A stretch of 64,000 bases of DNA, taken from assembly GCF_050920415.1 (NCBI RefSeq), contig NZ_CP169309.1; one strand, given 5' to 3'. Shown in pieces: positions 13,941-34,529 of this stretch; within the stretch, counting starts at the first letter, position 1; each line of letters opens with the position of its first letter. The translations under genes and the position numbers were made by a program. Origin of the DNA: Escherichia coli (GTDB taxonomy: Bacteria; Pseudomonadota; Gammaproteobacteria; Enterobacterales; Enterobacteriaceae). The notes below the pieces were generated by a model, which saw only the letters and a list, made by a program, of their open reading frames with translations, ran no database searches and had not been told where the DNA came from.

Positions 13941-14813
13941 TTACCAGCGACCGGAAGCACCGCCACCGCCAGAAGAACCGTCACCTCCGCTAAATCCGCC
14001 ACCACTTGAGCCGCCACCAGAACCGCCGCTGTCTGAATGATAACTTCTACCTGATGCTTTTTTCTGTGGGACACATAACCAGGTAAAGACCATAATGATG
14101 GTGAAAGTAAAAAAGAAGGAAAATACAGCAATGGAAAAAGTTTGATCGGAGAACAGGAATAAATCTATAAGATAGACTGTTGAAATACAAACACTGCTTT
14201 TAAATGCCCGACAAAAATTATTGCCTTGATGAAAAAACCAGAAAGGGAAGAACATCACTGCAAATACCCAAAAAATAGCAAAGTAGTAATGATCACTGGA
14301 AGACGCTGATTCACTTTCTGAAGGATTAGACGAATATTGGTGTTGTGAAGTGAGTTGGTTATTCAAAGCGATTATAGCTAACTCTCATCCCTTAGCTAAT
14401 TTTTGTTTTTTAAAGGCGGGTATCATGATGTTACGGATGATATTGCCAGCCAGAGCATCGGTTACCTTTTCTTCCAGCCCATAACCTACCTGAATGCGGA
14501 CAGTTCGATCCGACCAGGCAACAACGATCAGTATCCCATCATTACGTTTGGCATCTCCTAAACGCCAATTGTCAAAAACCCTTGTAGCATATTGTTCAAT
14601 AGAATCGCCTCCGGTGGATGGCACTATTAATACAGCGACCTGTGCCCGTGTTTTTTGTGTAATATCCTGCAGCTGTTGTGTCAGTGATTGTTGTTCAGAC
14701 GTGCTTAAGGTACCAGTAATATCGGTCACCTGTTGGCGCAGCTCCGGCACAGCAATTTGCTGGGCAAGCACAGGAAGGCACCATAAAGTGAGTAGAAAAA
14801 GGATTATACGCAT
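13941..14813 (-). pseudogene. YgcG-like TPM-domain membrane protein, copy 3, interrupted by an in-frame TGA
   Basis: ORFs 14385..14825 (signal peptide + TPM domain) and 13941..14366 (TM helices + Gly/Ser tail ...GGGGASGRW) are in the same frame, separated only by TGA at 14385..14387 and 6 sense codons; the downstream ORF begins with TTG, not ATG. Confidence 0.6.
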
Positions 14814-14818
14814 AACGA

Positions 14819-15966
14819 TCACCAACGGTCGGATGAACCGCCACCGCCAGAAGAACCGCCGCCACCGCGGAAAGAGTTTTTCGACGAAGAACGAGAATGA
14901 GCATTACGATTCCCCGTTTTCTTGTTGCTTTTATGCCCTGATCCCAGTTTAAGATTGCCAGTAAATTTGGCCACAATGATCAGCAGAACGATGCCAGCAA
15001 TGGTTATTGGGCCGATAAAATGATCAATTAGCCCAATAATTGTTGAGATGAACGCAATATCTTTATTACTGGCGAATACCAGGCACCATCCCACAACAAT
15101 TATCAGCAGCACGACAAACAATGAATTTCGTCCTGATTCACGAACCTGCGGAGCCTTCTTTTGTTTTTTCACTTTAGCGTTTTTATTTTGGGGGGCCAGC
15201 ATCATAGGAAATGTGCGGCATATATTAAAAACTACCGCGAGACGCTGCCAGCAGATTGCTGCGAAAAATAAACTAAAACAAACGACCGATACCCGCCGAA
15301 TGATGACATCGTCCTGAAAGGAGAAAAACCAGACCATAGGAGTAATCATCGATATCATCCATATGCCAGGCCCGGGACGGCTGGTAAATCGCCAGAGGAC
15401 AACGATGGCAACGATCATCAGTAATGTCCAGGCAAGACATGGCAGCGAGCGTTGCGGATTAGCAAACAGATGATTGGCTAAAGCATCCAAAGGGCTAAGA
15501 TTCGCTTTTATATAGGTAAACTGTGCGATGCCTTCAATTCCCTGCGTTAACCCGGAGAAGAGATTATTTTTTTGAATTCCGGTTGCATATGGTAATGAAC
15601 AATTTGCGCAGCTTGTTCCGGTGGCAGCATCTCTTCCAGTCCATGCCCAATCTTCATTGACGCCAGCCCTTCCGGCCAAACGACGAGAATTAAGATACCT
15701 TCGCCGTACCGCTTCTCTCCAACAGGTTTCCAGTGATATAACCCGTAGCTTTGCGAGGCTGCAAGTTTAATGTCTTTACCCCCAGTGGTCAGCGTTACCA
15801 ACACGGCAACCTGAAAGTGGTTTTGCTGCTCGAGAGTCTGTAATTGTTGAGTTAAAGCAGTTTGTTCTTCTGTCGTTAATGTCCCGGTTAAGTCAGTTAC
15901 TGAAGGCAATTGTTCAGCGAATGCCTGGAAACCACATAGCATCAGAAGTAAGAGAAAAATACGCAT
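14819..15966 (-). pseudogene. YgcG-like TPM-domain membrane protein, copy 2, frame-shifted at an A7 run
   Basis: ORF 15547..15966 (signal + TPM domain) and ORF 14819..15679 (5 TM helices + tail ...[15 protein letters not shown]) overlap in different frames; similarity to the intact paralog continues across the shift (LFSGLTQGIEGI vs LAGGLQKGISDI); switch point is the T7/A7 tract at 15567..15573. Confidence 0.6.
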
Positions 15967-15980
15967 TTCAATTCCTTTTG

Positions 15981-16919
15981 TTACCAGCGCCCGGAGGCGC
16001 CACCGCCGCCAGATGAACCGCCGCCGCCGCTGAAATTATCATTGTCAAAAGAGGATGAAGAGGAAGATGACGACGATGATGAAGAACGCCTGGAGGCCGA
16101 GTTACTTCTTTCGTAATGTGACGGTCGGTTGGCACTGCGCATCGAATCCCGAACCTTTTTGCCGAAGGGGGTAAAAGCGATGGCGACAGCCAGGAACGGT
16201 GTGGCGAAGCAGAGTAATGTTGCGAGTACTCCCCAGCTTCCGCTGAAACCTGCTATAGGTAAAACAAAGGCCAGTACAATAGCTGTGAAGCAAATTAGTC
16301 CCAGCGTTTTGACATATCCTCTGGCGGAAATAAAGGTCAGTACTATTGCCCAGACTAACAAAGCCCACCAACCGCTAAAGGGCAAAGGGTGATCGGTCGG
16401 TGTTATCGCTTCTAAATTATTCCCCGTCAGACGATTATCAATATCGCTTATTCCCTTTTGCAAGCCGCCAGCAAGGTCGCCATTTTTAAATGCCGGAATA
16501 ATACTGTTGCGAATAATTTTCCCGGACTGCGCATCCGTAATAACGCCTTCCAGTCCGTAACCGATTTCAATACGCACGGTATGATCCTGCCAGGCGACTA
16601 ACAGTAGAACGCCATCATCGCGGTCTTTATCTCCGGGTTTCCAGCTATCGAATACCCGCGTTGCGTACTGCTCGATGGTTTCATCGCCTGTGGTTTCAAC
16701 CACTAACACGACCAGTTGTGCGTGGCTTTTTTGCGTCAGCTCTTTAATCTGATTGGTCAACGTATTTACTTCATCGTTCGTCAATTTGCCGGTTAAGTCA
16801 TTCACATACCTGGGTGATTCAGGCACTGGAATTTGTATGGCAAACACAGATGAACAAAAGAAAGCCATAAGGAAGATAAAATTTCGCACAGGACTTCCTC
16901 GCTTAATGAGCATTAGCAT
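15981..16919 (-). CDS. YgcG-family TPM-domain membrane protein, intact copy (312 aa)
   Basis: signal peptide, TPM domain, 3 TM helices, poly-Ser tract, C-terminal [15 protein letters not shown]; probably the ygcG ortholog but which copy is orthologous cannot be decided from sequence alone. Confidence 0.8.
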   Translation of the reverse strand: MLMLIKRGSPVRNFIFLMAFFCSSVFAIQIPVPESPRYVNDLTGKLTNDEVNTLTNQIKELTQKSHAQLVVLVVETTGDETIEQYATRVFDSWKPGDKDRDDGVLLLVAWQDHTVRIEIGYGLEGVITDAQSGKIIRNSIIPAFKNGDLAGGLQKGISDIDNRLTGNNLEAITPTDHPLPFSGWWALLVWAIVLTFISARGYVKTLGLICFTAIVLAFVLPIAGFSGSWGVLATLLCFATPFLAVAIAFTPFGKKVRDSMRSANRPSHYERSNSASRRSSSSSSSSSSSSFDNDNFSGGGGSSGGGGASGRW

Positions 16920-17505
16920 TCTGGCTAAAATCTATTGTTGGGGTTTTACTCACAGCGGCGACATCATCCGGTAAATAATTTTTCTTCGGTGTGTAATCCA
17001 TGACTTTTGCGGTTAACACTGCGGGGAATTTGCGGATAGTGACATTATATTGTTCGATGGCTTTAATATATCTTCCTCGCGCAACGGCAATTCGATTTTC
17101 ACTTCCTTCGAGCTGTACCATCAAATTTTGATAGAGTTCCTGGGCCTTTAGCTCAGGGTAACGTTCACTAATTATCGTTAACTGACCGAGAGTGCGAGAC
17201 ACCTGCGCCTGGGCCTGTTGCCAGACTTGTAATTTTTGTTCATCCCCCGGAGTTTGCTGAAGATCGCTACTGGCGCGATTAGCCTGACTACGTGCCAATG
17301 TTACGGCTTCCAGTACCTCTTGTTCATGGCTGGAATAACCTTTAATACTAGCGACAAGATTAGGAATAAGATCGGCGCGACGTTGATATTGATTTAATAC
17401 CTCAGACCAGGAAGCGTTAACCTGCTCATCATAGGTTTGAATATCGTTATATCCACAGCCTGATAAATTGAAAATAAATATAATTACGATGAATATTCTG
17501 AGCAT
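16903..17505 (-). CDS. LemA-family lipoprotein
   Basis: 200-aa ORF with lipobox (FNLSGCGY) and LemA-like coiled region; its 3' end overlaps the start of the TPM gene (translational coupling). Confidence 0.8.
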   Translation of the reverse strand: MLRIFIVIIFIFNLSGCGYNDIQTYDEQVNASWSEVLNQYQRRADLIPNLVASIKGYSSHEQEVLEAVTLARSQANRASSDLQQTPGDEQKLQVWQQAQAQVSRTLGQLTIISERYPELKAQELYQNLMVQLEGSENRIAVARGRYIKAIEQYNVTIRKFPAVLTAKVMDYTPKKNYLPDDVAAVSKTPTIDFSQNANAH

Positions 17506-17677
17506 GGTTAAATTCCTTTTAATTAATTCCTTAAAACATAATACGCCACTTCATTTTATTCTTTATGATCTAATCCACTTTTTGCCTTAAACCTGCCTGT
17601 AACAGAATGTTAATAAGACATGATTGTTGTGGCAGGATCTGCAATAATTAACAATTATCCACTTCACAGAGAATGCT

Positions 17678-18539: not shown

Positions 18540-18687
18540 GGTATAGAGTTATTTTAAATATTTACTTTTTTAATCAATGGATTAAGTGTTCTTTAACATA
18601 ATGGATGTGTTGTTTGTGTGATCCTGTAAAGTTGGTAGATTGTGACTGGCTTAAAAAATCATTAATTAATAATAGGTTATGTTTAGA
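18540..18687 (+). promoter_or_regulatory. putative leader of the queE-proximal CRISPR array
   Basis: AT-rich sequence immediately 5' of the first repeat, same polarity as the repeats. Confidence 0.4.
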
Positions 18688-18899
18688 GAGTTCCCCACGT
18701 CAGCGGGGATAAACCGCTATACGAAGTTATTAGGTCCGAAGAGGAGTTGAGTTCCCCACGTCAGCGGGGATAAACCGTTTACGTGTTATCGCGCACCGGC
18801 GACGGTGTGGAGTTCCCCGCGCCAGCGGGGATAAACCGATTCAGCAAATAGCGAATTTCATAAATATGATGTGTTCCCCGCGCCAGCGGGGATAAACCA
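18688..18899 (+). CRISPR. type I-E CRISPR array, 4 repeats / 3 spacers (ygcE-queE array)
   Basis: 29-bp repeats at 18688, 18749, 18810, 18871 with 32-bp spacers (period 61); repeats 1-2 are the variant GAGTTCCCCaCGtCAGCGGGGATAAACCG, repeat 3 is canonical, repeat 4 is degenerate (GtG..., terminal a). Confidence 0.9.
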
Positions 18900-19352
18900 C
18901 CATATAACCCGTTATCTCTTTCTCAAGTTTTTATATTAGCTGTACTTGTAATAAGCAACATATCCACATAACACCTCATGTTCAAAATAGTTCCCCATGC
19001 CAGATAAGTTCACAATTATCGATACAAAAAATCAAATTTAATCAAAGTGTTATATGTATAATCCTTAAACCGTTAAGAAATTTTAATATATTATTTTTTT
19101 AATATTAATTAATGCCTGTTAATTTTTTCTTTAGAATAACAGTGTATTTTTTAAGCTTGTTATTCATTGATTAAGTAATAAATCTGGAAGTTTGTCTTTG
19201 TTTTGAGGCTAATGAGTGGTTTTACATAACCGCCTCTATACGCTGTTGATGAATAGTTCTTATGAATAAAGATATCCAGTTCATACTTTAAGTGAAAATT
19301 GATAAAGTGCGATTCGTATTGTCTTTTATTCTAAAGACATCGAGTGTAGTTA

Positions 19353-19490
19353 ATATTCCTTGTAAAAACAGGGATAAACCGAACTAGTTAAAGTTTTTAT
19401 TATGTTCCCTGCATCAGCGGGGATAAACCGGACTTGTTATCATTTTTTAAGTTGTCGAACTTATGTTCCCCGCGCCAGCGGGGATAACCA
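19353..19490 (+). CRISPR. degenerate CRISPR remnant (2-3 decayed repeats)
   Basis: repeat-like units ending at 19381, 19430 and 19490 (atGTTCCCtGCatCAGCGGGGATAAACCG; atGTTCCCCGCGCCAGCGGGGATAACCA) with one 32-bp spacer 19431..19462. Confidence 0.6.
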
Positions 19491-19536
19491 TTCAGGTATG
19501 TTCAGGCCGGGCAGTTTCCCGCCCGGTCTTCCTCAC

Positions 19537-21015
19537 TTACGCATTCGACCAGCTCTGGATCGAATCTGCATTCCCCAACTCACCATGCATCACTTCATAC
19601 GATTTTTTCAGGATCACATCAGTGTGTTTGGTTAGGTCTTTGAAAATGCCTTTATTCATCGCGTCGTAGCGTTTGGCATTGCTCTCAATCGGCATAAAGA
19701 TATCTTTCACGCGAACCATTTTGTCGACAGCCGTTGCGTAATCCGGGTATAGCCCCAGACCTACCGCTGTATTAATCGCGGCCCCCAGACTTGCGCAACC
19801 ATTAATGGCGTTACGGCGTGCCGGAAGGTTGAACACGTCGGCAAAAATCTGCATAAACAGATCGCTGTTCGAACCACCGCCAGTAATGATCACATGTTTC
19901 GCAAAGTGATTCATTTCATGACACATATTGTCGTAATTGTTCTTCAGCGTCAGCGCCACGCTTTCCAGTATCGAACGATAAATCCATGCGTAATCCATGC
20001 TGGAATCAAAGCCGATCATAATCCCGCGTTTGTAGGGTTCCCACGGGTTGGTCAGCCAGTCCAGCACCGTCATCAGACCATTACAGCCAGGCGGCACACA
20101 ACAAGCTTTTTTGTTGAGCAAATCTTCCGGTGAAAGATCCTGCGCCCTGGCATCCTGAATTAACGACTCGCCTAACATGTCGCGTAGCCAGCTCACCGTC
20201 CACATGCCTTTGCGAATACCGTAACCTTCATACAGCAAGGTTTGCGGAATAGAAGACATAATCGGCCAGTACGCTACCGGATCTTTCGGCAGTGCTTTGC
20301 CGTTCATCATCAGCGCGATGTAGGTACCAAGAGAAATTACCGCAGTTTCATCATCCAGTAACCCGGCTCCCAGTGCTTCTACCGGTTTATCACTGGTGGT
20401 ACAAACAACCGGCAGCCCAGCCGGGAAATGTGTCGCCAGCGCGGCTTGTGGTGTGATATGCCCAAGAACAGTGCCCGGCATTTGCACATCAAAAAGCATC
20501 TGTCGGGGAATATTAAACTTCTCCATTACCGCGGTATCTTCGCTCCATGCCCAGGTCTTATAATCCACCGGCCACTGACCAAAATAGTTGGCGATATTGT
20601 CTTTAAACTCGCCGGTTAAACGGTGTGTCAGATAACCTGAAAAAGAGGTGACATATGCCACATCAGGATTGGTGTGCTCGTAGGGACGTGTTACGCGTGC
20701 ATCCTGCCAGCTAATCAACGGCGCAGCTGGCGTGCCATCGGCTTTCAATAACGCACGGCAGCAACGGATAGATCCCAGACCAATGCCGACAATATCTTCT
20801 TTATTCCCGGCAAACTGGCTCATCAAATCGTGACCGGCAAAACATAATGATGCCCATAAATCGTCATCAGGATGTTCTGCGGTATCGGCATCTGGCGTGC
20901 GCATCGGCTGCAATAAGCCTTTGCCTTCGCATACCACATTACCTTCCAGATCGTACATCACCACTTTTGTGCTCTGACTTCCGCCATCAATCCCTATGAT
21001 GTATTTTTTCGACAT
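19537..21015 (-). CDS. ygcE: FGGY-family carbohydrate kinase
   Basis: 492-aa ORF; N-terminal IGIDGGSQSTKVV sugar-kinase motif. Confidence 0.85.
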   Translation of the reverse strand: MSKKYIIGIDGGSQSTKVVMYDLEGNVVCEGKGLLQPMRTPDADTAEHPDDDLWASLCFAGHDLMSQFAGNKEDIVGIGLGSIRCCRALLKADGTPAAPLISWQDARVTRPYEHTNPDVAYVTSFSGYLTHRLTGEFKDNIANYFGQWPVDYKTWAWSEDTAVMEKFNIPRQMLFDVQMPGTVLGHITPQAALATHFPAGLPVVCTTSDKPVEALGAGLLDDETAVISLGTYIALMMNGKALPKDPVAYWPIMSSIPQTLLYEGYGIRKGMWTVSWLRDMLGESLIQDARAQDLSPEDLLNKKACCVPPGCNGLMTVLDWLTNPWEPYKRGIMIGFDSSMDYAWIYRSILESVALTLKNNYDNMCHEMNHFAKHVIITGGGSNSDLFMQIFADVFNLPARRNAINGCASLGAAINTAVGLGLYPDYATAVDKMVRVKDIFMPIESNAKRYDAMNKGIFKDLTKHTDVILKKSYEVMHGELGNADSIQSWSNA

Positions 21016-21041
21016 GATTTTTCTCCTGTAATTTTCTGGAC

Positions 21042-22319
21042 TTACTTGTTGCTAGCCATTGCGGGGGCGCTATCAGCAGTACGAATTTTTTGGAACAGCA
21101 AAAAGGTAAAGACGATCACCATGGCAAGCGCCGCCATGCCCATCAGCCACATATTGCGGTAGGCTTCTGCCGCGGGCAGGGTGTCTTGCCAGTGGCCGAT
21201 AATTGGGTAAACGAAGACATCCGGCAGAAATCCAATCACCGAACAAATACCTACCGTGGTGCCCATAATGTAAGACGGTGTTCTCGCTTCGCCAGGGCAG
21301 GCCCAGTACAGCCCGCGTGAGGCGTAACAGGTGAATCCCAGAAGTAAAATCAGACCAATCCCCATCGCGACCGATTGCGGGTTAGAGTTCGTGATGAGCA
21401 GGGCAGTTAACGCCAGCAGGCCGAGTACGGAAAGGATTTGGATCACGCGGGTAGGGGATTTCACTTTGCTGTAGGTGGTGATAATGCCACCAAGTGGGCC
21501 GCACAGTGCGCGGAAGATTTTGTTGATCACAATCCCCATGTAGCTCGCCGCCACCAGCGACATGCCGTACATTTCGGTCAGATAGTTGGTGGAGTAACTC
21601 AGAATGGCGTAGATGGTGAAGACGCCAAAAATCACCATGCTGCAGTACCATGTGGTGCTGATGCGCAAAACGGCAAGGATGTCGCTAAGCTGGAATGACT
21701 GTTTTTCTTCGTTATTGGCATTGCGCAGGTTGTTGTTATCGCTAACAAAAAACCAGCACAGAATCCCCAATAAAATGTAGACCACACTATAGATGATAAT
21801 GACCGTTTTCAGGCTGGCGCTGTCATCCGGTGCAAAGCGAGAAAAGACCCACATGGTAAACACCGCCAGCGACATTACACCGACGCCGCGCAGCCCTTCC
21901 ATCCAGCCCATAATTTTCCCCTGCTCGCTATGATCGCCAAGCAACGATGCGGCTTTAATCGACACCGACCACAGCATTAAAATCGTCGTTATCGCAAAGG
22001 CGACCTGAATACAGAGCATTACCCACAGCGGTGGATACGTTGCCATTAACAGACCCAGCAATCCGGTAATGATCATCGCGGAAGTAATCATTTTGCGGTG
22101 TGAAAATTTATCGGCAATAACGCCGCTGGGGGCATAAAGAATAATAGCCGCAATACCAAAGGTACTCATTATTAAACCTATCTCGGTATTGCTGAATCCC
22201 ATAAATTTCGCCATGGGAATTTGATAAATATAACGTAAATAAGCCAGGTCGAAACTAACGCCGCCGCTAAAACTAATTATCGCGAGGGTTATCCAACGGC
22301 GATATGAGTTGTGTTGCAT
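21042..22319 (-). CDS. yqcE: MFS transporter
   Basis: 425-aa ORF, about 12 predicted TM segments; position between ygcE and ygcW. Confidence 0.8.
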   Translation of the reverse strand: MQHNSYRRWITLAIISFSGGVSFDLAYLRYIYQIPMAKFMGFSNTEIGLIMSTFGIAAIILYAPSGVIADKFSHRKMITSAMIITGLLGLLMATYPPLWVMLCIQVAFAITTILMLWSVSIKAASLLGDHSEQGKIMGWMEGLRGVGVMSLAVFTMWVFSRFAPDDSASLKTVIIIYSVVYILLGILCWFFVSDNNNLRNANNEEKQSFQLSDILAVLRISTTWYCSMVIFGVFTIYAILSYSTNYLTEMYGMSLVAASYMGIVINKIFRALCGPLGGIITTYSKVKSPTRVIQILSVLGLLALTALLITNSNPQSVAMGIGLILLLGFTCYASRGLYWACPGEARTPSYIMGTTVGICSVIGFLPDVFVYPIIGHWQDTLPAAEAYRNMWLMGMAALAMVIVFTFLLFQKIRTADSAPAMASNK

Positions 22320-22440
22320 ATCGTATTCCCATTTGTAATAGACAAAAAAAAGAGAAAAGTAAGCCGCCCTTTCAGGTGGATTACTTTTCTCAGGTCTCTA
22401 GTAATTGCAGTAAGAAATAACATGGAAAGCAGTGGTGTTG

Positions 22441-22456
22441 TGTGAGAGTAATCACG
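22441..22456. promoter_or_regulatory. candidate CRP site (TGTGA-N6-TCACg)
   Basis: tgtgagagtaatcacg in the divergent yqcE/ygcW intergenic region. Confidence 0.45.
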
Positions 22457-22497
22457 CTTCTGCTTTTTAAAATTATTTGACAATTCGAATATCACAC

Positions 22498-22513
22498 TGT
22501 GATTACGATCACA
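22498..22513. promoter_or_regulatory. candidate CRP site (perfect TGTGA-N6-TCACA)
   Basis: tgtgattacgatcaca about 125 bp upstream of the ygcW start. Confidence 0.5.
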
Positions 22514-22637
22514 TTAGCACTTATTCCCTTATGATAAAAATTATCTCCAGTTACCAGAGATAATGAGAAAGGTAACTTCCCTCTCGCGGGGGAAGTTACC
22601 TTTCTTTTTTTTTGCCTTACGGAAATTGGAGCTAACT

Positions 22638-23423
22638 ATGTCAATCGAATCTCTCAATGCGTTCTCAATGGATTTTTTCTCCCTGAAAGGTAAAACCGCA
22701 ATTGTTACCGGCGGGAATAGCGGTTTAGGCCAGGCATTTGCCATGGCGCTGGCAAAAGCAGGCGCAAATATCTTTATTCCAAGTTTCGTTAAAGATAATG
22801 GCGAAACAAAGGAAATGATTGAAAAACAGGGTGTTGAGGTGGACTTCATGCAGGTGGATATCACCGCAGAAGGCGCGCCGCAGAAGATAATTACCGCCTG
22901 TTGTGAACGTTTCGGCACCGTCGATATTCTGGTTAACAATGCCGGTATATGTAAGCTGAATAAGGTGCTGGATTTCGGTCGTGCCGACTGGGACCCGATG
23001 ATTGACGTGAACCTGACCGCCGCATTCGAGTTAAGCTACGAAGCGGCAAAAATTATGATCCCGCAGAAAAGCGGTAAAATCATTAATATCTGTTCACTGT
23101 TTTCTTACTTAGGTGGTCAATGGTCACCTGCTTATTCTGCCACTAAACACGCCCTTGCCGGATTTACCAAAGCCTATTGCGATGAATTAGGTCAATATAA
23201 TATTCAGGTAAATGGTATTGCCCCAGGATATTACGCTACCGATATCACCCTGGCGACACGCAGTAATCCAGAAACCAATCAGCGCGTTCTTGATCATATT
23301 CCAGCAAACCGTTGGGGCGATACTCAGGATTTAATGGGCGCAGCCATATTTCTCGCAAGTCCGGCATCGAATTATGTCAACGGGCATTTATTAGTGGTTG
23401 ATGGCGGTTATTTAGTGCGCTAA
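22638..23423 (+). CDS. ygcW: short-chain dehydrogenase/reductase (KduD/gluconate-dehydrogenase-like)
   Basis: ORF 22563..23423; start moved to the ATG preceded by GGAG (MSIESLNAF); TGGNSGLGQ Rossmann motif and YSATKHAL catalytic motif. Confidence 0.85.
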   Translation: MSIESLNAFSMDFFSLKGKTAIVTGGNSGLGQAFAMALAKAGANIFIPSFVKDNGETKEMIEKQGVEVDFMQVDITAEGAPQKIITACCERFGTVDILVNNAGICKLNKVLDFGRADWDPMIDVNLTAAFELSYEAAKIMIPQKSGKIINICSLFSYLGGQWSPAYSATKHALAGFTKAYCDELGQYNIQVNGIAPGYYATDITLATRSNPETNQRVLDHIPANRWGDTQDLMGAAIFLASPASNYVNGHLLVVDGGYLVR

Positions 23424-23492
23424 TCCATAACGGTGGTTTCTGATTTCTTTTATTAATGACTATTCCATTTTTATTATCAGGAAGGAATTACT

Positions 23493-24947
23493 ATGTCTTT
23501 ATCTCGCGCAGCGATTGTCGACCAGCTAAAGGAAATTGTTGGTGCAGATCGCGTAATTACCGATGAAACGGTATTGAAGAAAAACAGTATTGATCGTTTT
23601 CGTAAATTTCCGGATATTCATGGTATTTATACTTTGCCTATTCCGGCAGCGGTCGTAAAACTCGGTTCCACAGAGCAAGTGTCCCGTGTGCTGAATTTTA
23701 TGAATGCACACAAAATTAACGGTGTGCCGCGTACCGGGGCTTCCGCTACCGAAGGTGGGCTGGAAACCGTTGTGGAAAACTCGGTGGTGCTCGACGGCTC
23801 TGCCATGAATCAAATCATTAATATTGATATTGAGAATATGCAGGCCACGGCGCAATGCGGTGTTCCGCTGGAAGTGCTGGAAAACGCGTTGCGTGAAAAA
23901 GGTTACACCACGGGGCACTCTCCGCAGTCAAAACCGTTGGCACAGATGGGTGGACTGGTGGCGACCCGTAGTATTGGGCAGTTCTCCACACTCTACGGCG
24001 CAATCGAGGATATGGTCGTTGGCCTGGAAGCAGTACTGGCTGATGGCACCGTGACACGCATTAAAAACGTGCCACGACGCGCGGCGGGTCCGGACATTCG
24101 TCACATCATCATCGGCAACGAAGGCGCATTGTGCTATATCACTGAAGTCACTGTGAAAATCTTTAAATTCACTCCGGAAAACAACCTCTTCTACGGCTAT
24201 ATCCTGGAAGACATGAAAACCGGCTTCAACATCCTGCGTGAAATCATGGTGGAAGGATATCGTCCGTCGATCGCTCGTTTGTATGACGCTGAAGATGGCA
24301 CCCAACACTTCACCCATTTTGCCGACGGAAAATGCGTGCTGATCTTTATGGCTGAAGGTAACCCTCGCATTGCGAAGGCGACGGGCGAAGGGATTGCTGA
24401 AATCGTGGCACGTTACCCGCAATGCCAGCGCGTGGACAGCAAGCTGATCGAAACCTGGTTTAACAACCTGAACTGGGGACCGGATAAAGTGGCTGCCGAA
24501 CGTGTGCAGATCCTCAAAACCGGCAACATGGGCTTTACCACCGAAGTGTCCGGATGCTGGAGTTGCATACACGAAATCTACGAAAGCGTTATTAACCGTA
24601 TTCGTACCGAGTTCGCGCACGCCGACGACATCACCATGCTGGGCGGTCACTCCTCTCATAGCTATCAGAACGGCACCAACATGTACTTCGTCTACGACTA
24701 CAACGTCGTTGACTGTAAGCCGGAAGAGGAAATCGACAAGTACCACAATCCGCTCAACAAAATCATCTGCGAAGAAACCATTCGCCTCGGCGGTTCGATG
24801 GTGCACCACCACGGTATCGGTAAACATCGCGTTCACTGGAGCAAACTGGAACACGGCAGCGCGTGGGCATTGCTGGAAGGGCTGAAAAAACAGTTCGATC
24901 CTAACGGTATTATGAATACGGGTACTATCTATCCGATTGAAAAATAA
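23493..24947 (+). CDS. ygcU: FAD-linked oxidase (PCMH-type FAD-binding domain)
   Basis: 484-aa ORF with FAD-binding-4-like N-terminal domain. Confidence 0.85.
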   Translation: MSLSRAAIVDQLKEIVGADRVITDETVLKKNSIDRFRKFPDIHGIYTLPIPAAVVKLGSTEQVSRVLNFMNAHKINGVPRTGASATEGGLETVVENSVVLDGSAMNQIINIDIENMQATAQCGVPLEVLENALREKGYTTGHSPQSKPLAQMGGLVATRSIGQFSTLYGAIEDMVVGLEAVLADGTVTRIKNVPRRAAGPDIRHIIIGNEGALCYITEVTVKIFKFTPENNLFYGYILEDMKTGFNILREIMVEGYRPSIARLYDAEDGTQHFTHFADGKCVLIFMAEGNPRIAKATGEGIAEIVARYPQCQRVDSKLIETWFNNLNWGPDKVAAERVQILKTGNMGFTTEVSGCWSCIHEIYESVINRIRTEFAHADDITMLGGHSSHSYQNGTNMYFVYDYNVVDCKPEEEIDKYHNPLNKIICEETIRLGGSMVHHHGIGKHRVHWSKLEHGSAWALLEGLKKQFDPNGIMNTGTIYPIEK

Positions 24948-25040
24948 TGTGTCAGGCAGCGTTTCGCGATGACGGGGCGTTGTCTTTTCGGCTTCTCAAC
25001 CGGGAAGCCGTTCTTATTACCGGACAATGAAGGGGTAAAG

Positions 25041-26378
25041 ATGAACACTTCACCGGTGCGAATGGATGATTTACCGCTTAACCGTTTTCACTGTCGAATT
25101 GCTGCGCTGACTTTCGGCGCACACCTGACCGACGGTTATGTTCTCGGCGTCATTGGTTACGCCATAATTCAGCTTACTCCAGCCATGCAACTGACGCCGT
25201 TTATGGCGGGAATGATTGGTGGCTCGGCGCTACTTGGCCTGTTTATCGGCAGCCTGGTTTTGGGGTGGATCTCCGACCATATCGGGCGGCAAAAAATCTT
25301 CACCTTCAGCTTTATGCTGATTACGCTCGCCTCGTTCCTGCAATTTTTTGCCACCACGCCAGAGCATCTTATTGGACTGCGCATTTTGATCGGCATTGGG
25401 CTGGGAGGTGATTACTCAGTAGGTCACACCTTGCTGGCTGAATTTTCCCCGCGCCGCCATCGCGGTATTTTGCTGGGCGCTTTCAGCGTGGTGTGGACCG
25501 TAGGTTATGTGTTGGCAAGTCTTGCCGGACATCACTTAATTAGCGAAAGCCCCGAAGCCTGGCGATGGTTACTTGCATCGGCGGCATTTCCTGCCCTGTT
25601 GATTACGTTGTTACGTTGGGGAACGCCAGAATCGCCACGCTGGCTACTGCGCCAGGGGCGTTTTGCAGAAGCTCACGCTATCGTGCATCGCTATTTTGGT
25701 CCCCATGTTTTACTGGGCGATGAAGTGGCAACGGCGACCCATAAACACATCAAAACCTTGTTCTCTTCGCGCTACTGGCGGCGCACGGCGTTTAACAGCA
25801 TCTTCTTTGTCTGCCTCGTGATCCCGTGGTTTGTGATTTATACCTGGCTGCCAACTATCGCCCAGACTATTGGACTGGAAGATGCGCTGACTGCCAGCCT
25901 GATGCTTAATGCGTTGTTAATTGTGGGCGCGCTGCTGGGATTAGTTCTGACGCACCTGCTGGCACATCGCAAATTTTTGCTGGGAAGTTTTTTGCTGCTG
26001 GCGGCAACGCTGGTAGTGATGGCCTGTTTGCCTTCTGGCAGTTCATTAACGCTGCTGCTTTTTGTTCTCTTCAGCACCACCATTTCGTCAGTCAGTAATC
26101 TGGTGGGCATTTTGCCTGCGGAAAGTTTTCCTACTGACATTCGCTCGCTGGGTATCGGTTTTGCCACTGCCATGAGTCGGTTGGGGGCGGCGGTAAGTAC
26201 TGGCCTGCTGCCGTGGGTGCTGGCGCAGTGGGGAATGCAAGTCACCTTATTGCTCCTGGCGGCAGTGTTGTTGGTTGGTTTTGTTGTGACCTGGCTATGG
26301 GCACCAGAAACCAAAGCACTCCCGCTGGTGGCGGCGGGAAATGTAGGAGGTACGAATGAACATTCTGTTAGCGTTTAA
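25041..26378 (+). CDS. ygcS: MFS transporter
   Basis: ORF 24969..26378; likely start at MNTSPVRMDD preceded by GAAGGGG; 12-TM profile. Confidence 0.8.
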   Translation: MNTSPVRMDDLPLNRFHCRIAALTFGAHLTDGYVLGVIGYAIIQLTPAMQLTPFMAGMIGGSALLGLFIGSLVLGWISDHIGRQKIFTFSFMLITLASFLQFFATTPEHLIGLRILIGIGLGGDYSVGHTLLAEFSPRRHRGILLGAFSVVWTVGYVLASLAGHHLISESPEAWRWLLASAAFPALLITLLRWGTPESPRWLLRQGRFAEAHAIVHRYFGPHVLLGDEVATATHKHIKTLFSSRYWRRTAFNSIFFVCLVIPWFVIYTWLPTIAQTIGLEDALTASLMLNALLIVGALLGLVLTHLLAHRKFLLGSFLLLAATLVVMACLPSGSSLTLLLFVLFSTTISSVSNLVGILPAESFPTDIRSLGIGFATAMSRLGAAVSTGLLPWVLAQWGMQVTLLLLAAVLLVGFVVTWLWAPETKALPLVAAGNVGGTNEHSVSV

Positions 26379-27135
26379 AGCCGAACCGGATGCCGGAATG
26401 CTGGCGGAAAAAGAGTGGCAGGCAGCGGCTCAGGGTAATAGCGGACCGGATGTTTCGCTTCTGCGAAGTTTACTCGGTGCTGATGAACAGGCTGCCGCCG
26501 CGCTGCTGTTGGCGCAGAGAAAAAACGGTATGTCGATGTCTTTAACCGCGTTGAGCATGGGGGATGAACGGGCGTTGCACTGGCTGCGCTATCTCATGGC
26601 TCTTGGGTTTGAGGAAGCTGTATTGCTGGAGACGGCGGCAGATCTGCGCTTTGCGCCGGAATTTGTCGCTCGCCATATTGCCGAATGGCAGCGCCAGAAT
26701 CCGCTGGATCTGATCATTACTGGCTGCCAGAGCAGCGAAGGGCAGAACGGGCAAACGCCATTTTTGCTGGCGGAAATGCTGACTTGGCCCTGCTTTACCC
26801 AGGTGGAGCGTTTTACTCTCGACGCACCGTTTATCTCGCTCGAACAGCGTACTGAACATGGATTACGCTGTTGTCGGGTTCGCTTGCCTGCGGTGATTGC
26901 CGTGCGCCAGTGTGGCGAGGTGGCCTTGCCAGTACCGGGAATGCGCCAGCGAATGGCTGCGGGGAAAGCTGAAATTATCCGCAAAACTGTTACTGCTGAA
27001 TCGCCAGCGATGCAGTGCCGGCAACTGGAAAGGCCAGAGCAACGACGCGGTGCAACGCTTCTTGATGGGCAAACGGTAGCAGAAAAAGCGCAAAAGCTAT
27101 GGCAGGACTATTTACGCCAAAGGATGCAGCCATGA
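26356..27135 (+). CDS. ygcR: electron-transfer flavoprotein beta-subunit-like (FixA-like)
   Basis: 259-aa ORF; overlaps the end of ygcS and the start of ygcQ. Confidence 0.8.
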   Translation: MNILLAFKAEPDAGMLAEKEWQAAAQGNSGPDVSLLRSLLGADEQAAAALLLAQRKNGMSMSLTALSMGDERALHWLRYLMALGFEEAVLLETAADLRFAPEFVARHIAEWQRQNPLDLIITGCQSSEGQNGQTPFLLAEMLTWPCFTQVERFTLDAPFISLEQRTEHGLRCCRVRLPAVIAVRQCGEVALPVPGMRQRMAAGKAEIIRKTVTAESPAMQCRQLERPEQRRGATLLDGQTVAEKAQKLWQDYLRQRMQP

Positions 27136-27992
27136 ATATCGCCATTGTGACAATAAATCAGGACCATGCCGCAATAGCGGGCTGGCTGGCGGAGCAGGAT
27201 TTCAGCGGCAGCACATTAACGCACTGGCAAATCGAGCCGCAGCCGATGGTCGCGGAACAGGTGCTGGATGCGCTGGTAGAACAGTGGCAGCGAACGCCTG
27301 CGGACGTTGTTCTCTTTCCGCCGGGAACGTTTGGTGATGAACTGTCGACACGGTTGGCCTGGCGATTACATGGTGCAAGCATCAGCCAGGTGACTTCGTT
27401 AGATATTTCAACCGGAAGCGTACGCAAATCCCACTGGGGAAATGCGCTAACGGCGACGCTGCAAACAGAAAAACGCCCGCTATGCCTCTCCCTGGCGCGT
27501 CAGGCGGGAGCAGATAAAAACGCCTCGTTGCCCCCGGGTATGCAGCAACTGAACATTGTCCCAGGTGCGCTTCCCAGCTGGCTGGTTAGCATAGTGAACC
27601 TGAAAAATGTTACCCGCGACCCATTAGCTGAGGCCAGACGGGTGCTGGTGGTGGGGCAGGGCGGAGAGGCAGATAACCAGGAAATCGCTATGCTGGCAGA
27701 AAAGCTGGGAGCCGAAGTGGGCTACAGTCGGGCACGAGTGATGAACGGTGGCGTTGATGCTGAAAAAGTGATTGGTATTTCAGGACATCTGCTGGCACCT
27801 GAGGTGTGCATTGTTGTTGGCGCTTCCGGCGCAGCAGCGTTAATGGCGGGCGTACGCAATAGCAAGTTTGTGGTGGCGATTAATCATGACGCCAGCGCAG
27901 CGGTATTTTCACAGGCAGATGTTGGCGTGGTTGATGACTGGAAAGTGGTGCTGGAGGCACTGGTGACAAACATTCACGCAGATTGCCAATAA
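27132..27992 (+). CDS. ygcQ: electron-transfer flavoprotein alpha-subunit-like (FixB-like)
   Basis: ORF 27099..27992; start taken at MNIAIVTINQD. Confidence 0.8.
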   Translation: MNIAIVTINQDHAAIAGWLAEQDFSGSTLTHWQIEPQPMVAEQVLDALVEQWQRTPADVVLFPPGTFGDELSTRLAWRLHGASISQVTSLDISTGSVRKSHWGNALTATLQTEKRPLCLSLARQAGADKNASLPPGMQQLNIVPGALPSWLVSIVNLKNVTRDPLAEARRVLVVGQGGEADNQEIAMLAEKLGAEVGYSRARVMNGGVDAEKVIGISGHLLAPEVCIVVGASGAAALMAGVRNSKFVVAINHDASAAVFSQADVGVVDDWKVVLEALVTNIHADCQ

Positions 27993-28138: not shown

Positions 28139-28714
28139 TCAAAGCAATTTTTTCGCTAACGTCCAGACCCCGGTATTCGTGGTAGAAAGCGCCACTACAC
28201 CGGCGTTAATCGCATTACGCGCATCTTCTTCATCGCACACCAGCCCGCCAGCAATCAGCGGCTGGTGGATTTTCTCCGTTACCCAGCCCAGCACTTTAGG
28301 CATACAGCCTGGCAGAATTTCAATACAATCAGGATTCGATTGCGCAACCTGCTTATCAATGTTGTGAAAAGAAATCGAGTCGACAATAAACAAGCGATGA
28401 ATACAGAAAAAGCCTTCCGCTCTCGCCGCTTTTAGCATTGACGCTTTGGTACTGATAATGCCGTCCGCCTCGGTCACCAGTTTCAGAAACTGAATTACTA
28501 CTTCTTTATTTGACGCGCCTTCCAGCAAATCGACATGAATAAAAGCATATTTTCCGGCGTTCTTAATCTTTTTGACGATATGACTGATGGTGCAAATATT
28601 GCCGTATAACACGGAAATAAACTGGCATTCAGAATCGATTGCCAACTGCAGGCTGGCATTATCTTTAACGGCAGCAATCACCGGATTCTGGCGGAGCAGG
28701 TGTAAGAGGGGCAT
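28139..28714 (-). CDS. ygcP: GlpP-like antiterminator-family protein
   Basis: 191-aa ORF; position and size match ygcP. Confidence 0.8.
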   Translation of the reverse strand: MPLLHLLRQNPVIAAVKDNASLQLAIDSECQFISVLYGNICTISHIVKKIKNAGKYAFIHVDLLEGASNKEVVIQFLKLVTEADGIISTKASMLKAARAEGFFCIHRLFIVDSISFHNIDKQVAQSNPDCIEILPGCMPKVLGWVTEKIHQPLIAGGLVCDEEDARNAINAGVVALSTTNTGVWTLAKKLL

Positions 28715-28730
28715 AAATTATCCTTATTAT

Positions 28731-28991
28731 TTATCCAAAGCGGTAGATGATGCCGAATCCGGAAGGCGGATAGCGCCACTGTTGCAGTGTTTTTTCATCG
28801 CACAGCAAACGGCAGGTGCCACACTCCAGACAATTACGATAATCAACGTGCAAATCACCTTCCGGTGTGAGCGAAAAAAGACCAGCCGGACAAGCGTTAA
28901 TCAACCGTTCTGCCGTCTGGCGCTCAACGGAGTCAGCCGGAACAATATGTGGCGCATCAGCAGCGCGCCAGAGATTACGGGCTACAGACAT
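28731..28991 (-). CDS. ygcO: ferredoxin-like protein (FixX-like)
   Basis: ORF 28731..29027; Cys cluster CLECGTCRLLC; start taken at MSVARNL. Confidence 0.75.
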   Translation of the reverse strand: MSVARNLWRAADAPHIVPADSVERQTAERLINACPAGLFSLTPEGDLHVDYRNCLECGTCRLLCDEKTLQQWRYPPSGFGIIYRFG

Positions 28992-30253
28992 CGAATACTC
29001 CTGACAACATCGCCCGCCAGATGCCACAGGCCATGACGACGTAAATGACGCCAGAGCAACTGGCGCAGCGGCGGAACAGGTTTATCACCCTGATCCCATA
29101 AATCGCGGGAAATATCCTGCATTAACGCAGGCCACTTACGGTACCAGCCCGGGCGTTGCAAAAGCGCCGGAACATGCTGATAGCGCTGTAGAACATCCCA
29201 CAGCAGGCTGCGCTCTACGTTGTAATGATAAAGCGGAAACAGATTTTGCGGCTCGCGGTGCTGGCAGGCGCTTATCAGCGTTTGTGCCGCCGCCTGTGCG
29301 CCAGCCAGCGCCATATCCATGCCGCGCACGGAAATTCCGGTATTGACGCAACTGCGCAACGCATCGCCCAGCAGCAGCCAGCCGTTACCGGCGTATTGCA
29401 CCGGCATACTGTGCAAGCCACCTTCTGGCACCAGATGCGCACCATACTCCAGTGATTCCGTGTTTTTGATAAGCGGGCGCACTGCCGGATGCGTTTTAAA
29501 GCGAGCCAGCAGCTCGCTTGCCGGAACACGACTTTGCGTAAGTGAAGAGAGCGGGCAAACAATCCCTAACGAGAGCGTTTGTTGATTAGTATAAAGAAAT
29601 GCGCCGTCGGGTAAGTCATCACAGATTCCGCCGCTGAACAGCAACGCTGCGCCTTCGTTATTCTCCAGATGAAAACGTTCTTCAATAGCGGATGTTTCCA
29701 GTGACAGAACTTCTTTAATCCCCAACGCCATCACTTCGCCAGCAGGACGAGTCACTAACCCGTGACGCTCAGACAGGACGCTGTTGGCACCTTCTGCCAG
29801 CACCACATAACGGGCGCGGAGAATATCGTCACCACAAATAACGCCGCAAACTCTGCCTTTTTCTTCATACAGTGCATCCACCGTCGTACCGGGGATGCAT
29901 TCGACACCTTCTTTTTCGGCTTCGGCAACCAGCCACGGATCGAATCGCGCACGTAATACACTCCAGGATTCACCGCCGGGCTGTAAGCTGGAAAACGTCG
30001 TTGCGCCATCCGGCGTTAGCAGAGAAAGACTTTCGTGAGTGATGCGTCGTTCAAGAGGCGCGGTCAGGTGAAACTGAGGGAGGAGTTCCGCGAGCGCATG
30101 GGTGTATAAACGCCCGCCGGAAAGGTTTTTACTGCCGGGAATTTCAGCGCGTTCCAGTAACAGAACGGATAAACCTGCCCGCGCGCAGCGTAAAGAACAA
30201 GCGGTGCCTGCTATACCCGCACCAATAATAATAATGTCGCAGTCGTCTTCCAT
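28982..30253 (-). CDS. ygcN: FAD-dependent oxidoreductase (FixC/ETF-QO-like)
   Basis: ORF 28982..30283; dinucleotide-binding motif IIIIGAGIAG right after the internal Met chosen as start. Confidence 0.8.
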   Translation of the reverse strand: MEDDCDIIIIGAGIAGTACSLRCARAGLSVLLLERAEIPGSKNLSGGRLYTHALAELLPQFHLTAPLERRITHESLSLLTPDGATTFSSLQPGGESWSVLRARFDPWLVAEAEKEGVECIPGTTVDALYEEKGRVCGVICGDDILRARYVVLAEGANSVLSERHGLVTRPAGEVMALGIKEVLSLETSAIEERFHLENNEGAALLFSGGICDDLPDGAFLYTNQQTLSLGIVCPLSSLTQSRVPASELLARFKTHPAVRPLIKNTESLEYGAHLVPEGGLHSMPVQYAGNGWLLLGDALRSCVNTGISVRGMDMALAGAQAAAQTLISACQHREPQNLFPLYHYNVERSLLWDVLQRYQHVPALLQRPGWYRKWPALMQDISRDLWDQGDKPVPPLRQLLWRHLRRHGLWHLAGDVVRSIRCL

Positions 30254-32817: not shown

Positions 32818-34529
32818 TGAGCGAAAAACATCCAGGGCCTTTAGTGGTCGAAGGTAAACTGACAGACGCCGAGCGCATGAAGCTTGAGAGCAACTACCTG
32901 CGCGGGACCATTGCGGAAGATTTAAACGACGGTCTGACCGGCGGCTTTAAGGGCGACAACTTCCTGCTGATCCGTTTCCACGGTATGTATCAGCAGGATG
33001 ACCGCGATATCCGCGCCGAACGTGCTGAACAGAAGCTGGAACCGCGTCATGCGATGCTGCTGCGCTGCCGTCTGCCGGGTGGGGTGATCACCACTAAACA
33101 GTGGCAGGCAATTGATAAATTCGCCGGTGAAAACACCATTTATGGCAGCATTCGCCTGACCAACCGCCAGACGTTCCAGTTCCACGGCATTCTGAAAAAG
33201 AACGTCAAACCGGTGCACCAGATGCTGCACTCGGTCGGTCTTGATGCGCTGGCGACCGCCAACGACATGAACCGTAATGTACTCTGCACCTCGAACCCAT
33301 TTGAATCTCAGTTGCACGCGGAAGCGTATGAGTGGGCGAAGAAAATCTCTGAACATCTGCTGCCGCGTACCCGCGCCTACGCGGAGATCTGGCTCGATCA
33401 GGAAAAAGTCGCCACCACTGACGAAGAACCGATCCTCGGTCAGACCTATCTGCCGCGTAAATTCAAAACCACGGTAGTGATCCCGCCGCAGAACGATATC
33501 GATCTGCACGCCAACGACATGAACTTTGTGGCGATCGCGGAAAACGGCAAGCTGGTGGGCTTCAACCTGCTGGTGGGTGGTGGGCTTTCTATCGAACACG
33601 GCAACAAGAAAACCTACGCCCGCACGGCGAGCGAGTTTGGCTATCTGCCACTGGAGCATACGCTGGCGGTGGCGGAAGCGGTCATTACCACTCAGCGTGA
33701 CTGGGGTAATCGTACTGACCGTAAAAACGCCAAAACCAAATACACGCTGGAGCGCGTGGGGGTCGAGACGTTTAAAGCAGAAGTGGAACGTCGCGCGGGG
33801 ATCAAGTTCGAACCGATCCGTCCGTATGAATTTACCGGTCGCGGCGATCGTATCGGCTGGGTAAAAGGGATCGACGACAAATGGCACTTGACGCTGTTTA
33901 TCGAAAATGGCCGAATTCTTGATTATCCGGGACGTCCGCTGAAAACCGGCCTGTTGGAGATCGCAAAGATCCACAAAGGTGATTTCCGCATTACGGCGAA
34001 CCAGAATCTGATCATCGCCGGTGTACCGGAAAGCGAGAAAGCGAAGATTGAGAAGATCGCCAAAGAGAGCGGATTGATGAATGCCGTCACGCCGCAGCGC
34101 GAAAACTCAATGGCCTGCGTGTCATTCCCGACTTGCCCGTTGGCGATGGCGGAAGCGGAGCGTTTCCTGCCGTCGTTTATCGATAACATCGATAATTTAA
34201 TGGCGAAACATGGTGTCAGCGATGAGCATATCGTGATGCGTGTAACAGGCTGCCCGAACGGTTGTGGTCGCGCGATGCTGGCGGAAGTGGGCCTGGTGGG
34301 TAAAGCGCCTGGGCGCTACAACCTGCATCTTGGTGGCAACCGCATTGGGACACGTATCCCACGGATGCATAAAGAAAACATCACCGAGCCGGAAATCCTG
34401 GCGACGCTTGATGAACTGATAGGGCGCTGGGCGAAAGAACGTGAAGCGGGTGAAGGCTTCGGCGACTTTACGGTGCGTGCGGGCATCATTCGCCCGGTGC
34501 TCGATCCGGCGCGTGATTTGTGGGATTAA
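32817..34529 (+). CDS. cysI: sulfite reductase hemoprotein beta subunit
   Basis: 570-aa ORF; siroheme/4Fe-4S Cys motifs ([21 protein letters not shown]). Confidence 0.96.

Follow-up and report, generated by a model that had tools for sequence, protein, structure and literature searches.

Two CRP sites and two terminator leaders between yqcE and ygcW of Escherichia coli suggest a two-step gate on a catabolic gene cluster

The stretch of Escherichia coli DNA analysed here (64,000 nt, referred to throughout as ‘the window’) includes the spacer between the genes yqcE and ygcW, in which two sites for the cyclic AMP (cAMP) receptor protein, CRP, had been picked out in an earlier note made from the sequence alone. 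We propose, with a probability of about 0.75, that this spacer forms a two-step gate, comprising CRP-driven initiation, termination within a leader and read-through dependent on the protein YgcP. Two mirror-image units would stand back to back, each with a CRP site approximately 41.5 bp upstream, an extended −10 element and a terminator leader. On exhaustion of the preferred carbon source, cAMP-CRP would bring RNA polymerase to a pair of class II promoters that act independently; by default, polymerase would stop at the leader terminator and release a short RNA. Read-through would need a 6–7-bp RUUACY/RGUAAY helix closing a conserved AGAGA-N3-4-GAGAAA loop, a helix too weak by itself (−1.4 to −6.7 kcal/mol) that YgcP, together with a ligand that the YgcE kinase probably produces by phosphorylation, would stabilise. 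The outcome would be an AND gate, combining carbon limitation (through CRP) with the presence of a specific substrate (through YgcP). The part of this model that concerns CRP is highly probable. Coordinates are collected in Table 1.

Default termination in the leaders is shown in K-12 by published RNAs. Two abundant RNAs from the ygcW-yqcE spacer were listed as ‘potential novel sRNAs, simple stem-loop’, that is, small RNAs (Romero et al. 2014, PMC4681348, Table S5): ecr2774 (2898315–2898388, 73 nt, ygcW strand) and ecr2775 (2898527–2898590, 63 nt, yqcE strand). The abundance of the RNAs detected in that study depended on growth medium (PMC4681348). After conversion from old to current K-12 coordinates (a shift of 1978 bp), with the mapping checked on the K-12 sequence, ecr2775 is AAUUACUAGAGACC...CUUUUCUCUUUUUUUUG, running from 22406 to 22343 in the window, and ecr2774 is CUCCAGUUACCAGAGA...UUUCUUUUUUUUUGCCUU, running from 22545 to 22618. 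Promoter geometry (described below) predicts starts at ~22407 (yqcE, minus strand) and ~22547 (ygcW, plus strand), compared with RNA 5′ ends at 22406 and 22545, and the RNA 3′ ends at 22343 and 22618 compare with U-tract ends at 22344 and 22613. Since the ends of the short RNAs match the predictions, transcription from both promoters begins no more than 1–2 nt from the predicted starts and both terminators are functional in vivo. The two RNAs would then be leader transcripts, started at CRP-dependent promoters and ended prematurely, which is simpler than reading them as sRNAs.

The two leaders are near-identical to each other, approximately 65–75 nt long, and place the terminator just 5′ of the ribosome-binding site. 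They share the pattern CA[A/G]TTAC[C/T]-AGAGA-N3-4-GAGAAA[A/G]GTAA[C/T]...TTAC[C/T]TTTCT[C/T]-T8-9, and around 30 nt of their primary sequence is highly conserved. In the ygcW terminator, for which the terminator scan found 19 pairs, the final two bases of the hairpin are the start of the T run. Across an alignment of 86 distinct leaders, drawn from both sides of the spacer, pairing in the terminator helix reached 92%, and 8 of its pairs showed compensatory changes. A second helix, mutually exclusive with the terminator, joins RUUACY at the 5′ bases of the transcript to RGUAAY in the 5′ arm of the terminator; it was also 92% paired, compared with 15–53% for slid controls, and the pairs themselves vary (55 GC and 27 AU at one position, 54 UA and 26 CG at another). 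In one ygcW leader (L024) all three interacting arms had changed together (GTTGCC / GGCGAC / GTCGCC). Among 23 leaders outside the training set this helix was again 92% paired (controls 17–54%), with 12 GC and 8 AU at one pair. Folded as nascent RNA, the isolated 5′ hairpin was weak (−6.7 and −1.4 kcal/mol for the two leaders), and a weak 5′ hairpin that shares bases with a terminator is typical of antiterminators that are stabilised by a protein. No Rfam leader family matched 22200–22800 at E ≤ 10, and at the gathering score the whole window matched only sok, elsewhere.

YgcP is the candidate for the stabilising protein. It matches Pfam family PF04309 (G3P_antiterm, glycerol-3-phosphate responsive antiterminator) over residues 1–173 of 173 and has 3kts and 1vkf as solved relatives, although no NCBIfam model matched it. 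In Bacillus subtilis, GlpP with glycerol-3-phosphate overrides the 5′ untranslated region (UTR) terminators of glpD, glpFK and glpTQ (PMC9604022). The glpD 5′ UTR (PMC9604022 supplement), to which our comparison of GlpP targets was confined, shows the same design: it folds into a short GGUC/GACC helix around a GAGA..GAGA loop, with some bases used by helix and terminator alike.

The leaders and YgcP also occur together. A covariance model built from enterobacterial leaders only found exactly two copies in the window, and full-length matches outside its training range in Geosporobacter, Anaerosolibacter, Sporomusa, Cohnella and several Clostridia metagenome-assembled genomes, where they lay 5′ of or between ygcW, ygcE and ygcU homologues. 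All ten non-enterobacterial loci with a detectable ygcP homologue had at least one leader match, compared with none of 17 loci (Actinomycetota, Desulfobacterota and others) that carried ygcW, ygcE or ygcU homologues and had no ygcP in the fetched DNA. Homologues of ygcP were present in 54/81 fetched loci, and additionally in the Vibrio and Photobacterium loci; these two Vibrionaceae loci, reached through their YgcP homologues, had leaders before dehydrogenase, kinase and transporter genes. In Clostridia and Photobacterium (L063 12389–12462; L053 7614–7691, minus strand, and 7851–7922, plus strand; L089 18295–18370) the motif was further found within operons, such as between ygcE and ygcU homologues, and as divergent pairs before transporter genes; in these genomes the regulon comprises two to three leaders per genome. 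On co-occurrence and family precedent, YgcP is moderately likely to be the antitermination factor for these leaders. Its ligand is probably not glycerol-3-phosphate, because the gene content of the cluster points to another phosphorylated substrate.

It is unlikely that the leaders attenuate transcription independently of YgcP, as a metabolite riboswitch, through a leader peptide or through another protein, even though the link between YgcP and RNA is drawn by inference and a stretch of primary sequence as long and as highly conserved as that in the leaders could accommodate such a reading. The variable element is a 6–7-bp helix with a 14–18-nt loop, too small for known metabolite-binding folds, and Rfam offers no match. 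A leader peptide was considered from the ATG at 22563–22565, in frame with ygcW (a 286-amino-acid open reading frame), and rejected: yqcE-type leaders lack it, which leaves no conserved leader peptide, and the triplet, which falls within the conserved loop of the leader (AUGAGAAA), does not serve as a start codon. Moreover, no other regulator is encoded in the E. coli cluster, the motif co-occurs with ygcP, and the layout resembles that of glpD.

Turning to initiation, a YgcW scan of species-representative genomes yielded 80 loci, 47 of them Enterobacterales with the divergent yqcE/ygcW arrangement. Counting as CRP-like any site with at most 2 core mismatches, we found two such sites in 46/47 of these enterobacterial loci; their half-sites are conserved and their N6 spacer varies freely. 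Site 2 was centred 131–144 bp from the ygcW start codon, and site 1 mostly 128–148 bp from that of yqcE. The order common to both sides in the alignments is a CRP site, 18 variable bases and TGnTA; in 92/92 promoters (46 loci) the first base of the extended −10 element lay 29.5 or 30.5 bp from the CRP centre (29.5 bp on the yqcE side in E. coli). A CRP site at −41.5 or −42.5 from the start defines class II geometry, and the 29.5/30.5-bp spacing places both sites there. Each site is thus predicted to be a class II CRP-dependent promoter element of the galP1 type, with no usable −35 element. In Vibrio hannami, the best CRP-matrix match in a 20-kb locus lay 41.5 bp upstream of one predicted leader start, and a weaker CRP site 41.5 bp from the predicted start of the other leader.

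Three published or apparent promoter elements were rejected. TTGACA at 22477–22482, taken as a −35 element in a published prediction (TTGACA-16-TGTGAT, PMC3946193), is unconserved outside E. coli and lies 52 bp from the conserved −10 element; the published yqcE prediction TTCTCA-18-GATAAT, which was also returned by our own scan, occupies non-conserved positions inside the ygcW leader region. TATGAT at 22530–22535 is a good −10 element in this strain only, and reads TATGCT or TGTGCT elsewhere, the conserved element being TGnTA.

The distance between the two sites, in contrast to that between each site and its −10 element, varies: it was 56–58 bp in 28 of 29 Escherichia-Citrobacter-Klebsiella-Enterobacter loci (46 bp in the remaining locus, L021), and 36, 65, 93–133, 163–173 and 246 bp in other genera. 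In the spacer alignment the intervening stretch of approximately 35 bp, to which the TTGACA belongs, was not conserved. Because the distance from CRP site to −10 element is constant, that between the sites variable, and the DNA between them unconserved, it is likely, on this comparative evidence, that one CRP site serves each promoter, site 1 that of yqcE-ygcE and site 2 that of ygcW-ygcQ.

The window was 100% identical to NZ_CP169399.1 over a test kilobase, and 95–99% identical to most other complete E. coli genomes. Its 161-bp promoter core (22400–22560), compared with 5065 E. coli genomes, was 90–97% identical to most and thus unusually divergent; this strain’s substitutions cluster in the spacers, both CRP half-sites and the leaders being invariant or nearly so. 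Within Escherichia, similarly, the half-sites and TGnTA cores were invariant, as were the leaders apart from three differences of one base each on the yqcE side, and substitutions fell in the spacers. Two rearranged regions were seen. In Limnobaculum eriocheiris (L031, 3058–3186) the region is compacted or rearranged: its yqcE-ygcW spacer measures only 130 bp, CRP-like sites are absent, and there is just one leader copy, which gives a match on each strand (54.9 and 44.1 bits). In E. coli PK8277 (L085, NZ_CP080133.1 1026533–1027379) the promoter core is cut to 47 bp with IS1A transposase genes on either side, so that the regulatory region is disrupted by insertion sequences.

One quite improbable alternative to one site per promoter is that site 2 alone is functional and serves both promoters, site 1 being weak or decorative. 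Site 1 does carry a mismatch in one half-site and, in the portions available of the published tables of CRP sites from chromatin immunoprecipitation sequencing (ChIP-seq; PMC4287617) and Footprint-seq (PMC12871828), site 2 is listed and site 1 is not; the resolution of ChIP-seq is, however, insufficient to separate two sites 57 bp apart. Site 1 has been kept in 46 genomes, always 29.5 or 30.5 bp from the yqcE −10 element, and its spacer is better conserved than that of site 2 in the Escherichia-Citrobacter-Enterobacter group. Site 2, meanwhile, would have to act on yqcE from approximately −98.5 in E. coli and from up to approximately 290 bp in other genera. CRP activates from positions such as −61.5, −72.5, −82.5 and −92.5, with which −98.5 is out of helical phase.

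There is still less to be said for the two sites acting jointly as a tandem unit, whether in synergistic class III activation or in CRP-CytR-CRP repression. The near-constant spacing of 56–58 bp in the Escherichia-Citrobacter-Klebsiella-Enterobacter loci would suit such a unit, yet both sites and both leaders persist in genera with the widely different spacings given above, the intervening DNA is unconserved, and 57 bp is approximately 5.4 helical turns, which would set the two dimers on nearly opposite faces of the DNA. In the CytR-CRP module, CRP sites lie approximately 52–53 bp apart with CytR half-sites between them; the spacing observed here (57 bp in E. coli, 36–246 bp elsewhere) and the absence of a CytR-type TGCAA motif between the sites rule that module out.

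Equally poorly placed is the proposition that what the CRP sites drive is not the ygc genes but two free-standing, trans-acting sRNAs, ecr2774 and ecr2775. Both RNAs are abundant in K-12 and were classed as potential sRNAs, the one upstream of yqcE is named in the Fig. 7 legend among the RNAs examined by northern blot (PMC4681348), and each finishes in a hairpin and U tail. Nevertheless, the 20–24 nt from terminator to start codon hold no other conserved promoter, and yqcE-ygcE mRNA depends on crp in the data available from PMC8085971. The motif lies 5′ of ygc-type genes in all phyla examined, including within operons (as at L063 12389–12462), and covariation of the antiterminator would be purposeless in a plain sRNA. 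A dual role, in which the leaders serve as sRNAs as well as attenuators, is possible.

The two CRP sites themselves are well supported. The earlier note had reported 16-mers at 22441..22456 and 22498..22513, and both were found exactly there; the note’s figure of 42 bp between them was out by one, as the intervening DNA counts 41 bp (57 bp between centres). Its description of both as ‘consensus-grade’ is exact for site 2, a perfect TGTGA-N6-TCACA, whereas site 1 agrees with 9/10 core bases, one half-site reading TCACG. Site 2 is the sole perfect copy in the window (0.05 expected). In a position weight matrix made from 106 site sequences in the CRP ChIP-seq table of enterotoxigenic E. coli (ETEC; PMC4287617), with site 2 left out, site 2 scored 18.4 bits and site 1 13.6 bits, the top two of 63,985 window positions (next, 12.2 bits), at the 95th and 60th percentiles of the 106 ChIP-seq sites respectively. 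Among 20,000 shuffles of the spacer, 0.3% contained one site as good as site 1 and none contained two. With the coordinates confirmed, the top two matrix scores, and no shuffle in 20,000 with both, the two sites are taken as real. That both are chance matches in AT-rich intergenic DNA, for which it could be said that the count with one mismatch allowed (4 in the window, 1.8 expected) is not in itself significant, has next to no probability given these scores and shuffles, retention in 46 genomes and the published binding data that already refute it.

The third-best matrix score in the window was that of TGGGACCACGGTCACA at 55270–55285 (12.2 bits). Another match, CGTGATGCGTGTAACA at 34232–34247 (12.1 bits), is identical to the site under the ETEC (cysI)/cysH CRP ChIP-seq peak and is a second published CRP target in the window; its score is partly circular, as the cysH site belongs to the matrix training set.

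Control by cAMP-CRP, the central claim of the earlier note, is borne out by published work. Site 2 is the motif under the ygcW/yqcE CRP ChIP-seq peak in ETEC H10407 (PMC4287617), which supplies the occupancy that the note had suggested looking for. In the part of a 2026 preprint that was available (PMC12871828), the same site has an in vitro Footprint-seq dissociation constant (Kd) of 1.7 nM in K-12, in the high-affinity class; the label ‘novel’ given to it there means merely that it is >500 bp from the 308 sites that the authors treated as known. The spacer ranked second among the 2007 PhyloScan CRP predictions (PMC1794230), and yqcE-ygcE is listed, in the accessible portion of PMC8085971, as a ‘novel and validated’ operon activated by Crp, the evidence being crp-deletion transcriptomes and a Crp-cAMP gel shift of its promoter, the electrophoretic mobility assay that the note had also proposed. 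Control ‘in both directions’ is published for yqcE-ygcE; for the ygcW side it is predicted from promoter geometry. Control of ‘the ygc cluster’ holds for yqcE-ygcE and ygcW-ygcQ and not for ygcNOP: neither a CRP-matrix match nor a leader motif was found at the ygcNOP operon in matrix and covariance-model scans of the window, so the cluster under CRP comprises the other two units only, and expression of ygcP appears independent of the two units it would control. CRP is moreover no more than a first layer, since in laboratory culture both transcripts stop at their leader terminators (PMC4681348). That the CRP sites imply CRP control is, in itself, already known, and nothing is added here to the CRP regulon.

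Several points weigh against the two-step gate. The published 5′ ends of the short RNAs put the CRP centres at −42.5 (yqcE) and −39.5 (ygcW), not exactly at −41.5, and these ends are boundaries of RNA sequencing (RNA-seq) coverage, not mapped start sites. Searches for the sequence of site 1 in the literature were without result, in addition to its absence from the two tables cited above, and no data on crp dependence of ygcW were found in the published literature, as far as this was accessible. Genomic SELEX (systematic evolution of ligands by exponential enrichment) has located both RNA polymerase holoenzyme and H-NS in the ygcW/yqcE spacer (PMC3946193), and H-NS may add a further layer of control. 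The covariation in the leaders reflects few independent events among related sequences, so that shuffle statistics overstate its support. The DNA fetched around some ygcP-less loci was short, and ygcP may fall just outside it. YgcW is 74–79% identical between phyla, and such high cross-phylum protein identity suggests horizontal transfer of the whole cluster, which would weaken conservation across phyla as independent evidence. Finally, we infer the binding of YgcP to the leaders, and the ligand that it senses, from co-occurrence and from the precedent of its family.

With these points in view, we lean, with modest confidence, towards the leaders being an undescribed class of cis-regulatory RNA, recognised by a non-glycerol subfamily of GlpP/PF04309 proteins (YgcP) and spread among Enterobacterales, Vibrionaceae and Clostridia; the pair described here would be the first such antitermination system of E. 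coli, gating a catabolic cluster of the ‘y-ome’ behind CRP, with ecr2774 and ecr2775 as its terminated leaders. The class would be recognised by RUUACY on the 5′ side, the loop AGAGA-N3-4-GAGAAA, an RGUAAY arm in common with the intrinsic terminator, and UUUUCUC-U8 as its last stretch. Within the searchable literature and Rfam, this reinterpretation of the leaders is undescribed so far. If correct, it would explain a strong CRP site in front of genes that are silent in the laboratory, as initiation would mostly yield terminated RNAs of 63 and 73 nt, and each CRP site could be assigned to one promoter with a defined geometry. More generally, CRP occupancy would fail to predict mRNA output where a leader terminator follows the promoter. 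The leaders and YgcP would also offer a direct handle for finding the inducer of the ygc cluster, which has no known substrate; literature searches for a published function of ygcP or of the cluster returned nothing useful.

Table 1. Positions in the window of the regulatory elements, transcripts and genes discussed in the text.
Feature	Position	Strand	Description	Evidence or remark
CRP site 1, TGTGAGAGTAATCACG	22441..22456		centre 22448.5 = K-12 NC_000913.3 2900462.5	yqcE promoter
CRP site 2, TGTGATTACGATCACA	22498..22513		centre 22505.5 = K-12 position 2900405.5	ygcW promoter
yqcE extended −10	22414..22422	−	TG 22422–22421, hexamer TATTTC 22419–22414	conserved island in spacer alignment
ygcW extended −10	22532..22540	+	TG 22532–22533, hexamer TAAAAA 22535–22540	TGnTA conserved in 46 loci
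yqcE leader RNA	22343..22406	−	ecr2775	covariance model match 22334–22410, 81 bits
ygcW leader RNA	22545..22618	+	ecr2774	covariance model match 22545–22624, 85 bits
yqcE leader intrinsic terminator	22344..22391	−	hairpin 22391–22352, U8 22351–22344	−23.3 kcal/mol, z = −3.1
ygcW leader intrinsic terminator	22565..22613	+	hairpin 22565–22606, T run 22605–22613	−42.4 kcal/mol, z = −6.6
yqcE candidate antiterminator hairpin	22380..22405	−	AUUACU 22405–22400, loop AGAGACCUGAGAAA, AGUAAU 22385–22380	
ygcW candidate antiterminator hairpin	22550..22576	+	GUUACC 22550–22555, loop AGAGAUAAUGAGAAA, GGUAAC 22571–22576	
yqcE	21042–22319	−	major facilitator superfamily (MFS) transporter	RefSeq annotation, NCBIfam
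yqcE-ygcE operon	19537..22319	−	MFS transporter and FGGY sugar kinase	RefSeq, NCBIfam, published Crp activation
ygcW	22638–23423	+	short-chain dehydrogenase	RefSeq annotation, NCBIfam
ygcW-ygcU-ygcS-ygcR-ygcQ	22638..27992	+	beyond ygcW: ygcU, flavin adenine dinucleotide (FAD) oxidase; ygcS, MFS transporter; ygcR/ygcQ, electron transfer flavoprotein subunits	
ygcP	28139..28714	−	candidate trans-acting antiterminator	Pfam PF04309, E = 2e-62
ygcP, ygcO, ygcN	28139–30253	−	separate operon beyond ygcW-ygcQ	

The RefSeq annotation of NZ_CP169399.1 places 318 bp between yqcE and ygcW and confirms the divergent transcription given in the earlier note. Other features of the window were recorded in passing. 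Two short arrays of clustered regularly interspaced short palindromic repeats (CRISPR) occupy 18682–18902 and 19396–19494, in an unannotated gap of 1.1 kb between queE and ygcE; their repeats are type I-E-like (...GTTCCCCGCGCCAGCGGGGATAAACCG) and spaced 61 bp, and the arrays look like the E. coli CRISPR locus that adjoins ygcE. The sok antitoxin RNA match (Rfam RF01794, 97 bits) at 35523–35678 on the plus strand marks a hok/sok-type toxin-antitoxin locus. Between eno and queE (window 14002–17566, L001 4003–7567) lie a LemA-family gene and three TPM-domain pseudogenes, the lesions of the latter being an internal stop, a frameshift and a truncation.

The most direct comparison is with the published RNAs, ecr2774 and ecr2775 being the same molecules as the leaders, with coordinates that map exactly (PMC4681348). 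Romero et al. filed them as simple stem-loop sRNAs, possibly similar to repetitive extragenic palindromic (REP) elements; here they are read as terminated leaders.

As promoters, the two units resemble E. coli galP1, the class II CRP promoter with an extended −10 element described by Busby and Ebright. In galP1, as proposed here, CRP is centred approximately 41.5 bp upstream, overlapping the −35 position, and a TGn extended −10 takes the place of a good −35 element. Unlike galP1, the ygc locus has two promoters back to back, approximately 140 bp apart, with a site for each and a terminator leader after each, and its starts were read from the boundaries of RNA-seq coverage, not from primer extension.

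As attenuators, the leaders recall the targets of BglG and SacY, in which a weak 5′ hairpin likewise shares bases with a terminator and needs stabilisation by a protein, a part that would fall here to YgcP. The proteins differ, YgcP belonging to PF04309, with a triosephosphate isomerase (TIM)-barrel-like fold, and not having CAT-PRD domains; the RNA motif is a different one, and the ygc system has no known link to phosphorylation by the phosphotransferase system.

A further relative is the B. subtilis glp regulon. There too, the pathway genes are accompanied by one for a PF04309 protein and the 5′ UTR contains an intrinsic terminator; in glpD, as in the ygc leaders, the GAGA..GAGA loop is closed by a short helix that overlaps the terminator’s 5′ arm. 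The ygc pathway, unlike that of glp, is not one for glycerol, as it comprises an FGGY kinase, a short-chain dehydrogenase, an FAD oxidase and an electron transfer flavoprotein, and E. coli ygcP, whose product is a putative RNA-binding protein, stands in a separate operon devoid of CRP site and leader. In B. subtilis, glpFK is under catabolite repression by CcpA. Both systems would join a global carbon signal to a pathway-specific antiterminator, YgcP being the presumed one at ygc, the difference being that the global signal is positive at ygc (activation by CRP) and negative in glp (CcpA).

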